From positions 34,596,001 through 34,660,000 of the forward strand of contig OZ024746.1 of the NCBI GenBank assembly GCA_964016885.1: a DNA stretch of 64,000 bases, written 5' to 3'. The notes below the pieces were generated by a model. That model saw nothing but the letters and a program-made list of their open reading frames with translations, was not told where the DNA came from and did no database searches. Source of the stretch: Eledone cirrhosa (lineage: Eukaryota). The position numbers and the translations under genes are program-made. Below are positions 28,735 to 31,345 of this stretch, piece by piece (position 1 is the stretch's first letter; each line of letters begins with the position of its first letter).

Positions 28735-31345
28735 ATGAGAGACGTAAGATAAGAAAATTATAAAATTATAAAAAAATTATAAAATTGACTTACTTACTAA
28801 AATATCACTTCCAACTAATTAGTTTCTGGAATGGAGTAAATATATTTTCCGAAGAATATACGGAAAAGCATTCCGTCGTCAGGAAAGTCTCTTTTCATGT
28901 AAGTTTCCAGGCATAGCGAGGACTCTGGAAACTTATTAAAAAAATAATTCAGTGGAAAGGAAATAGCGAAGCGTGGACTGAAATCCTAGCCATTGAGAAA
29001 ATCACTGCCTCTACGTCTGTGGCAAATTCAAAAAGAATCAATCACGTGACATCGAGGTCAATCAGTGGAAAGCGAGTTGTTAATAAGACAGCGGCCTGCC
29101 TACTACTATAGCAGCAGTCATGGCCAATATTGCTCGACAAATGAATTGGAGATAATTATAAAGAATTTATATCTAGTAACATTTATATACATACAGATGC
29201 ATATCAATGCTAGCAAATATATAGGTTTTGTCTTAGTAACATTATGGTTCAATGCATGGGGTTGCAGAAAATTAATATGAGAGACGTAAGATAAGAAAAT
29301 TATAAAATTATAAAAAAATTATAAAATTGACTTACTTACTAAAATATCACTTCCAACTAATTAGTTTCTGGAATGGAGTAAATATATTTTCCGAAGAATA
29401 TACAAAAAGCATTCCGTCGTCAGGAAAGTCTCTTTTCATGTAAGTTTCCAGGCATAGGGAGGACTCTGGAAACTTATTAAAAAAATAATTCAGTGGAAAG
29501 GAAATAGCGAAGCGTGGACTGAAATCCTAGCCATTGAGAAAATCACTGCGTCTACGTCTGTGGCAAATTCAAAAAGAATCAATCACGTGACATCGAGGTC
29601 AATCAGTGGAAAGCGAGTTGTTAATAAGACAGCGGCCTGCCTACTACTATAGCAGCAGTCATGGCCAATATTGCTCGACAAATGAATTGGAGATAATTAT
29701 AAAGAATGTATATCTAGTAACATTTATATACATACAGATGCATATCAATGCTAGCAAATATATAGGTTTTGTCTTAGTAACATTGTGGTTCAATGCATGG
29801 GGTTGCAGAACAATAATATGAGAGACGTAAGATAAGAAAATTATAAAATTATAAAAACATTATAAAATTGACTTACTTACTAAAATATCACTTCCAACTA
29901 ATTAGTTTCTGGAATGGAGTAAATATATTTTCCGAAGAATATATAGAAAAGCATTCCGTCGTCAGGAAAGTCTCTTTTCATGTAAGTTTCCAGGCATAGC
30001 GAGGACTCTGGAAACTTATTAAAAAAATAATTCAGTGGAAAGGAAATAGCGGAAAGGAAATAGTTGGAAGTGATATTTTAGTAAGTAAGTCAATTTTATA
30101 ATTTTTTCATAATTTTATAATTTTCTTATCTTACGTCTCTCATATTATTGTTCTGCAACCCCATGCATTGAACCACAATGTTACTAAGACAAAACCTATA
30201 TATTTGCTAGCATTGATATGCATCTGTATGTATATAAATGTTACTAGATATAAATTCTTTATAATTATCTCCAATTCATTTGTCGAGCAATATTGGCCAT
30301 GACTGCTGCTATAGTAGTAGGCAGGCCGCTGTCTTATTAACAACTCGCTTTCCACTGATTGACCTCGATGTCACGTGATTGATTCTTTTTGAATTTGCCA
30401 CAGACGTAGAGGCAGTGATTTTCTCAATGGCTAGGATTTCAGTCCACGCTTCGCTATTTCCTTTCCAATGAATTATTTTTTTAATAAGTTTCCAGATTCC
30501 TCGCTATGCCTGGAAACTTACATGAAAAGAGACTTTCCTGACGACGGAATGCTTTTCTGTATATTCTTCGGAAAATATATTTACTCCATTCTAGAAACTA
30601 ATTAGTTGGAAGTGATATTTTAGTAAGTAAGTCAATTTTATAATTTTTTTATAATTTTATAATTTTCTTATCTTACGTCTCTCATATTATTGTTCTGCAA
30701 CCCCATGCATTGAACCACAATGTTACTAAGACAAAACCTATATATTTGCTAGCATTGATATGCATCTGTATGTATATAAATGTTACTAGATATAAATTCT
30801 TTATAATTATCTCCAATTCATTTGTCGAGCAATATTGGCCATGGCTGCTGCTATAGTAGTAGGCAGGCCGCTGTCTTATTAACAACTCGCTTTCCACTGA
30901 TTGACCTCGATGTCACGTGATTGATTCTTTTTGAATTTGCCACAGACGTAGAGGCAGTGATTTTCTCAATGGCTAGGATTTCAGTCCACGCTTCGCTATT
31001 TCCTTTCCACTGAATTATTTTTTTAATAAGTTTCCAGAGTCCTCGCTATGCCTGGAAACTTACACGAAAAGAGACTTTCCTGACGACGGAATGCTTTTCC
31101 ATATATTCTTCGGAAAATATATTTACTCCATTCTGAAACTAATTAGTTGGAAGTTATATTTTAGTAAGTAAGTCAATTTTATAATTTTTTTATAATTTTA
31201 TAATTTTCTTTTCTTACGTCTCTCATATTATTGTTCTGCAACCCCATGCATTGAACCACAATGTTACTAAGACAAAACCTATATATTTGCTAGCATTGAT
31301 ATGCATCTGTATGTATATAAATGTTACTAGATATAAATTCTTTAT
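28735..31345. mobile_element. Tandem + inverted array of a 541-542 bp hammerhead-bearing non-coding unit (retrozyme-like)
   Basis: Units start at 28735, 29277 and 29818 (partial, to 30050). Inverted units run 30061-31345. Copies are near-identical and flanked by (TA)n on both sides. Confidence 0.9.
30532..30613 (+). ncRNA. Type I hammerhead of the 541-bp unit (also 31074-31154 +; 28807-28888, 29349-29429, 29890-29971 -)
   Basis: actttc CTGACGA cGGAATG...CATTC(C/T)a GAAA CTAATTAG TT ggaagt: 6-bp stem I, extended stem II with inner hairpin, palindromic stem III, GUU triplet. Confidence 0.75.

Follow-up and report, generated by a model that had tools for sequence, protein, structure and literature searches.

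Inverted insertions of a hammerhead-bearing 541-bp unit in Eledone cirrhosa almost always use one each of two end points and likely record the copying mode of a PLE enzyme

Insertions of Penelope-like elements (PLEs) carry a recognizable signature, described in the part of Craig et al. 2021 (PMC8557442) available to us as 5' truncation, partial tandem arrangement, an inverted 5' copy, a 30-40-bp tail that is often found at one end only, and a bias toward microsatellites. In the anole PLE, as presented in the accessible part of Frangieh et al. 2024 (PMC11167929), the tail spans the interval between two RT start sites; RT starts 111-118 nt into the ORF and the hammerhead cuts at 26, which places the start ~85-92 nt after the cut. 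PLE minimal hammerheads are described as probable dimers with low activity in vitro (Cervera and de la Pena 2014, PMC4209133, in part). The metazoan non-LTR retrozymes, for which circular RNA has been shown, are non-coding tandem repeats with one type I hammerhead per unit, and the portions of the retrozyme papers available to us (Cervera and de la Pena 2020, PMC7229834; Li, Clavereau and Pollet 2026, bioRxiv 10.64898/2026.07.22.740005) infer mobilization by PLEs from shared features, co-occurrence and pLTR homology, and not from insertion ends. How retrozymes enter the genome, and how the PLE tail and inverted arms originate, are stated there as open questions (PMC8557442, bioRxiv 10.64898/2026.07.22.740005). 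The family described below links the two.

We analyzed a 64-kb stretch of E. cirrhosa DNA (contig OZ024746.1, positions 34,596,001 to 34,660,000; hereafter the window), in which a non-coding unit of 541/542 bp forms an inverted array of two arms inside (TA)n. Positions within the unit are numbered from the predicted cut, such that GUU is followed by GGAAG at +1. A long (TA)n target microsatellite (28626..28736) lies to the left. The minus-strand arm (28734..30051; 1,316 bp, 2.43 units) has its 5' end at monomer position 387 and stops, at +79/80 from the predicted cut, at what we call fixed end A. The plus-strand arm (30066..31346; start 30064/30066, and ~1,281-1,294 bp by junction assignment) starts within ~2-5 nt of a predicted cut site and comprises two full monomers (30066-30607 and 30608-31148) and a further 198 nt that run to fixed end B (+198). 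The arms are joined in inverted orientation at the 5' ends of both, at a junction (30037..30065) with a local duplication of 13-14 bp (30037-30063). The last 118 bp of the plus arm (31229..31346), between the positions of ends A and B, hold two conserved predicted hairpins, and a remnant of the (TA)n target of ~10 units follows (31347..31366). The units are 97-100% identical, the longest frame that an ORF scan gives for the array is 76 aa stop to stop, and no PLE protein match was found there. The preliminary description of this locus, which had reported a tandem and inverted array of near-identical units in (TA)n without a credible ORF, is thus borne out, with arms of 1,316 and ~1,290 bp and ~2.4 units each. 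We consider the array likely to be a single insertion of a dispersed unit that carries a predicted hammerhead. All five units in the window differ at monomer positions 492-494, in the loop II region of the hammerhead, against ~1% difference elsewhere; neither CpG decay nor editing accounts for this, and alignment ambiguity in a pyrimidine run may contribute.

A descriptor scan recovered four of the five type I hammerhead folds that had been claimed: on the minus strand 28807..28888 (CUGACGA at 28882, predicted cut after 28813), 29349..29429 (CUGACGA at 29423, cut after 29355) and 29890..29971 (CUGACGA at 29965, cut after 29896), and on the plus strand 30532..30613 (CUGACGA at 30538, cut after 30607). 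The fifth (31080, plus strand; motif 31074..31154, predicted cut after 31148) was seen by reading the sequence and is without the A before GAAA. Type I motifs thus occur in two or more units in a row, with three in succession in the minus arm, and the predicted hammerhead is of type I by its CUGANGA and GAAA core, NUH site and stems I-III. Across 246 motifs extracted from all fetched loci, a set that includes repeats from overlapping loci and was drawn with a pattern in which stem III and some of the core were set in advance, CUGAYGA is the core in 234 and GUU the predicted cleavage site in 245.

Three features of the hammerhead were absent from the preliminary description. In 240 of the 246 motifs the closing position of stem II is a C.A mismatch, with a G-C pair one step further out, so the paired 10.1-11.1 closure that adjoins the core in type I hammerheads is absent from these motifs. 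An Rfam search at gathering score gave 0 matches in the 64-kb window. Finally, the 101-nt hammerhead folded on its own does not exceed its shuffles in stability (z 0.21); the whole monomer has a stable predicted fold (z -5.2), in a linearization that puts the cut site between the two stem I strands. The case for the fold is therefore made by covariation and not by energy. Among 18 representative motifs, picked for diversity from subfamilies ~67-90% identical to the window unit and with stem III fixed by the search pattern, 96.8% of cells are paired, compared with 31-52% in slid controls. Because related sequences can beat shuffles, the evidence lies in the types of pair: compensatory change on both sides occurs at 3 of 6 stem II pairs and, more weakly, at 2 of 5 stem I pairs, and all four Watson-Crick pairs occur at a single position of stem II. 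By this measure the predicted hammerhead fold is conserved across subfamilies. The available part of PMC7229834 describes an active axolotl hammerhead in which a U.U mismatch is tolerated at the helix II base.

The motif resembles the PLE minimal hammerheads, as far as these are presented in the portion of PMC4209133 available to us, in its long helix II, the unpaired base between 9 and 10.1, the G-C first pair of stem II, the palindromic helix III, and the occurrence of opposite-strand pairs 100-700 bp apart. It differs from them in a conserved A between stem II and GAAA (the C/A of 240/246), an 8-nt palindrome and a loop II region of ~37 nt.

The preliminary description had also inferred a recently active element, and the genome supports this. 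A search with the monomer gave 2,382 candidates, with 166 matches among the 40 of these that were scored; in those 40, full copies are 95-100% identical and lie on many contigs. Exact matches to hammerhead halves number 2,407 for the group of the window unit, including an older form of ~522 bp, and 8,625 for the sister subfamilies, whose periods span ~520-570 bp, and reversed control patterns for hammerhead halves and ends gave 0. Median divergence from the column majority is 1.5% (138 loci), and this low value indicates that activity was recent. We saw neither an A>G excess that would point to A-to-I editing nor a CpG excess that would point to CpG decay as the source of variation. The unit belongs to a dispersed, multicopy family that shares its genome with PLEs. 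In the open-access literature we found no description of a cephalopod retrozyme family; this one may already be catalogued in the repeat databases (Repbase, Dfam).

The copies end at two fixed points. End A, at +80 from the predicted cut, has 95 exact matches that run into TA, and end B, at +198, has 116 (100 among the matches listed), compared with 0 for the control in each case. We fetched 120 of 141 new end-anchored regions and, after removal of 7 overlapping duplicates, mapped both ends across 144 loci. These include 100 two-armed junctions, of which 77 pair end A with end B, 0 pair A with A, 3 pair B with B, and 20 have one end of another kind. Where both ends of an inverted insertion are fixed, they are therefore one of each in 77 of 80 cases (binomial p 7e-20), and two of the three B/B junctions are copies of one segmental duplication while the third is doubtful; an additional B/B case outside the count (L133) was parsed across mixed subfamilies. 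Among head-to-head pairs from sister subfamilies with both ends in TA, for which the hammerhead motif and not the ends had been the basis of choice, a short end is matched with a long one in 5/5. The 57 single arms have a fixed 3' end, which is A in 31 and B in 21, and a variable 5' end. Arms have a median length of 356 bp and a maximum of 2,134 bp (~four units), hold head-to-tail units only, and are joined with 0-4 nt of microhomology at 77 of 94 junctions. The 0 matches to the reversed control pattern and the 100 inverted junctions at many different breakpoints speak against chance and against an assembly artefact.

The 118-bp segment from A to B is the counterpart of the PLE tail, and its two predicted hairpins show limited covariation (3 of 22 pairs). 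Long tails are not peculiar to this family, as end pairs lie roughly 40-140 nt apart in other families of this genome (single examples each). Fixed 3' ends with a tail, 5' truncation, an inverted 5' copy and a microsatellite target were all found, so that the insertion hallmarks of PLEs noted in the preliminary description are upheld and extended. A counted rule of one end per arm was not found in the open-access literature. Four loci (L026, L029, L068 and L070) have an internal inversion in place of the usual structure, the inverted piece of L029 stopping at +2; we take these to resemble L1 twin priming. Four independent loci (L054, L065, L084 and L131, with L032 similar) share an identical minimal inverted structure of 73+191 bp, joined at an ATAT palindrome at +8..+11, and may represent two run-off cDNAs of a cleaved RNA annealed at the first palindrome.

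We then considered what template the arms were copied from. The rate of difference at shared polymorphic sites is 3.9% between opposite arms, 4.5% between the units of an arm, and 17.5% between loci. Minor alleles agree between arms at 143 of 161 sites, compared with 11% when shuffled; 43 of 95 two-armed insertions were informative, 28 of them fully concordant and 2 (L024, L045) mostly discordant. Private alleles are common to both arms (26/156) as often as they are shared within one arm (34/182). Some insertions have arms that do not overlap (L109, L115, L128 and L138), which argues that one arm is not a fold-back DNA copy of the other. Because the haplotype is shared and many source haplotypes exist in the genome, one RNA, or the RNAs of one locus, would have served both DNA ends, and we infer that both arms were copied from one template source. 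Arms cross a predicted cut site in 170 of 217 cases and 9 are longer than two units; since they read across cut sites, the template would have been circular or incompletely cut, and the arms are compatible with a circle and with a linear multimer alike.

The 5' ends of the arms give some further information. Between +1 and +20, just after the predicted cut, we observed 28 ends with 11.2 expected (Poisson p 1.6e-5, uncorrected for the number of bins), and the start of the window's plus arm falls in this peak; five loci with both arms inside it supply 10 of the 28 ends, and four of these loci share one palindromic 8/8 junction. Positions 461-500, inside the hammerhead, hold a second peak (35 observed, 19 expected). 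As the first peak is modest and the second lies within the motif, stalling of RT at structure explains the excess too. We also looked for unit-specific variants inherited in order between loci, as a linear source array might transmit them, and found none: 225 adjacent-unit differences yielded 3 locus pairs sharing two, none of which was upheld, and apparent ordered variants shared by the window and L070 proved coincidental on inspection. Such a lack of order is expected of a monomer circle and equally of homogeneous sources.

The explanation that we favor, and hold with good confidence, is that the unit is copied in trans by a PLE RT-endonuclease that primes from two fixed RNA sites at the respective cut ends of (TA)n. 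Tandem copies would first be transcribed. The predicted hammerheads would cut inefficiently at GUU, with dimers the probable form given the short palindromic stem III, and cut monomers may be ligated to give circles. The PLE protein would bind the structured region downstream of the cut and nick both strands of (TA)n, after which synthesis would start at +80 on one DNA end and at +198 on the other, with a single RNA, or RNAs of common source, as template. cDNA synthesis would pass at least one cut-site junction on a circle or an uncut multimer, and joining of the two cDNAs at their truncated ends would give the inverted array. Against this scheme stand the 8 of 9 predicted Xenopus retrozyme dimers that were uncleaved in vitro (bioRxiv 10.64898/2026.07.22.740005) and the continued insertion by the anole PLE when its hammerhead was mutated.

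A variant of this scheme, not mutually exclusive with it, deserves serious weight, and we put it a little short of an even chance: the template would always be an uncut, linear read-through transcript mobilized by the PLE, the hammerhead would be weak or dispensable, and no circle would form. Most arms pass through cut sites, and C.A closure together with a 3-bp stem III predicts weak cleavage. Unprocessed RNA serves the anole PLE in vitro, in the available portion of PMC11167929. Copies are, however, 5'-truncated to a median arm of 356 bp, so that array length would need regenerating; unit-specific variants are not transmitted in order between loci; and covariation in stem II implies selection on the fold. 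A more specific form of the favored scheme, in which a dimeric PLE RT works on one ribozyme-made circle of ~541 nt with active sites starting 118 nt apart, one per DNA end, we regard as tentative and on present grounds rather doubtful.

Young PLEs are abundant in this genome. GIY-YIG candidates number 10,596, and RT plus GIY-YIG frames extend to 1,096 aa stop to stop, with TA targets and two-ended pLTRs; the young frames carry a CxxxxCxxC linker resembling the one reported for Neptune/Nematis, a likeness judged by the linker. From a GIY-YIG family search and two protein searches we assembled 110 PLE-ORF loci, representing a handful of families. None has the 541-bp unit as its pLTR, so that attachment to a coding PLE as an ordinary pseudo-LTR, the outcome that the preliminary description had set against its own reading, was not seen among the 110 loci. 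There is no common coding neighbor among 73 arm flanks, nor by tblastn of 150 loci. Profile matches to the unit among the 110 loci were limited to L168, L189 and L245: the first is in opposite orientation and the second lies beyond ~700 bp of TA, both being separate sister-subfamily insertions, and L245 is an inverted pair known from coordinates only. As far as a motif was found in them, the sampled autonomous families differ from the unit in hammerhead and ends. One lead may name the mobilizing enzyme: at L229:1290-1889 (minus strand), a sister-subfamily arm is fused at +99, without TA, to ~110 nt of the pLTR end of the L183 family, which may reflect a template switch or a later adjacent insertion. 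A CTACGTAG motif beside an L183-family ORF proved to belong to another tandem family.

These data also bear on whether the units are pseudo-LTR fragments of an unsampled autonomous PLE, the short arrays being its 5'-truncated copies. The ends, tail and inversion are as in autonomous PLEs, and the 110 loci were inspected out of many thousands; against this, arms of up to 2,134 bp hold nothing other than head-to-tail units, the 73 flanks and 150 loci share no coding sequence, and same-strand hammerheads are spaced ~520-570 bp apart among the matches listed, and not 3-5 kb. We regard this origin as improbable, and the array itself was rejected as an autonomous EN+ PLE, being without an RT plus GIY-YIG ORF flanked by pLTRs. 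Spread as a satellite or MITE-like DNA element by fold-back, rolling circle or unequal exchange is very improbable and largely refuted by the end pattern, for although TA-flanked inverted arms are MITE-like and L019 is best read as a later, local one-period DNA duplication, the outer ends are unequal (+80 vs +198), the inner junctions differ at nearly every locus, 52 of the 57 single arms end at A or B with a variable 5' end, and RNA structure is conserved on one strand.

Several other hammerhead families of this genome appear to insert alike. In the window, another inverted hammerhead-bearing element (31366-31695, motif 31635, plus strand) adjoins the array in the same TA site, and a different family forms a short inverted pair beside (TA)n at 3479-3662 (motifs 3517, minus, and 3624, plus), with relatives at other loci that have a TATATA stem III and ends ~52-54 and 138-156 nt after the cut. 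A type I hammerhead at 28379-28455 (plus), unrelated to the 541-bp unit, has an 8-bp stem I, a long stem III and a GUC site; it could fold as a monomer, and a related fragment lies at ~31945-31975 (minus). A small hammerhead with a CTAG stem III (877-919, minus) belongs to a family that recurs in many fetched loci and is tandem in L118, ~420 bp apart. The stretch 27924-28344 has inverted arms of 133 nt (86%) and TA-rich flanks with no hammerhead by descriptor scan, and is a candidate MITE-like element or another PLE passenger. Broken PLE copies of at least three families lie at 37552-38120, 39771-42261, 50906-53905 (minus) and 55091-57644 (plus); the pair at 51-57 kb forms the two inverted arms of one insertion, from a young, high-copy family with a separate hammerhead in its pLTR and two pLTR ends ~57 nt apart. 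At 21643-24024 (plus), beside (AAT)n, a 793-aa frame with RT and a restriction-like endonuclease is presumably of an R4/Dong-type non-LTR element. Outside the window, L176, L039 and L035 hold a separate tandem family of ~594 bp, with a CTACGTAG stem III and, by eye, apparently a U3-A8 core variant, which the L181 PLE family apparently has too.

How does the family compare with the described systems? With the EN+ PLEs Neptune, Poseidon and Naiad, as covered in the parts of PMC8557442 and PMC11167929 at hand, it shares 5' truncation, partial tandems, an inverted 5' copy, a tail at one end, microsatellite or AT-rich targets, and a hammerhead ~80-90 nt upstream of the first end; the anole start ~85-92 nt after the cut is close to end A. 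Unlike them it has no ORF, and its tail is 118 bp long and theirs 30-40 bp. The anole enzyme in vitro uses its start sites alike on both strands, whereas the ends of the 541-bp family are coupled one per arm (PMC11167929). The putative non-autonomous Chlamys PLEs such as MRC1 are likewise multicopy head-to-tail insertions with pLTRs, but in the available part of PMC8557442 their 3' end resembles that of an autonomous partner, for which we found no equivalent in 110 loci, and their clade is reported without canonical hammerheads.

With the metazoan non-LTR retrozymes, on the available portions of PMC7229834 and bioRxiv 10.64898/2026.07.22.740005, the family shares the non-coding tandem unit with its single type I hammerhead, low GC, dimers to multimers and co-occurrence with PLEs, and 541 bp is within the 51-972 bp range given in the 2026 preprint. 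It differs in a hammerhead of PLE type (6-bp stem II, an extra nucleotide after A9, palindromic stem III) that is C.A-closed, and in copies that are dispersed insertions of 1-4 units with PLE ends and inverted arms; circular RNA is an observation for the retrozymes and a possibility for the 541-bp family. By the operational definition in the accessible part of that preprint the putative element is a non-LTR retrozyme. That it works like one is better supported than full membership, and we describe it as a predicted new non-LTR-retrozyme-like, non-autonomous PLE passenger of a class that is itself already known.

The element class and the PLE hallmarks having been described, the value of the family is its insertion record: a full PLE insertion signature on a non-coding hammerhead repeat, at mapped loci that number well over a hundred. 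The one-of-each rule (77/80) and the haplotype common to both arms constrain the PLE mechanism and make it directly testable. A 541-nt RNA with two mapped start sites offers the in vitro PLE assay already in use a compact substrate. If coupled starts on a circle were true, twin priming would be programmed and the PLE tail and inverted arm would be one event; thousands of retrozyme insertions would then be the first large in vivo record of it, and the RNA would be recognized by structure and not by homology to a partner pLTR. It is likely that the inverted insertions, in almost always using one each of two end points, record how the PLE enzyme copies its template.
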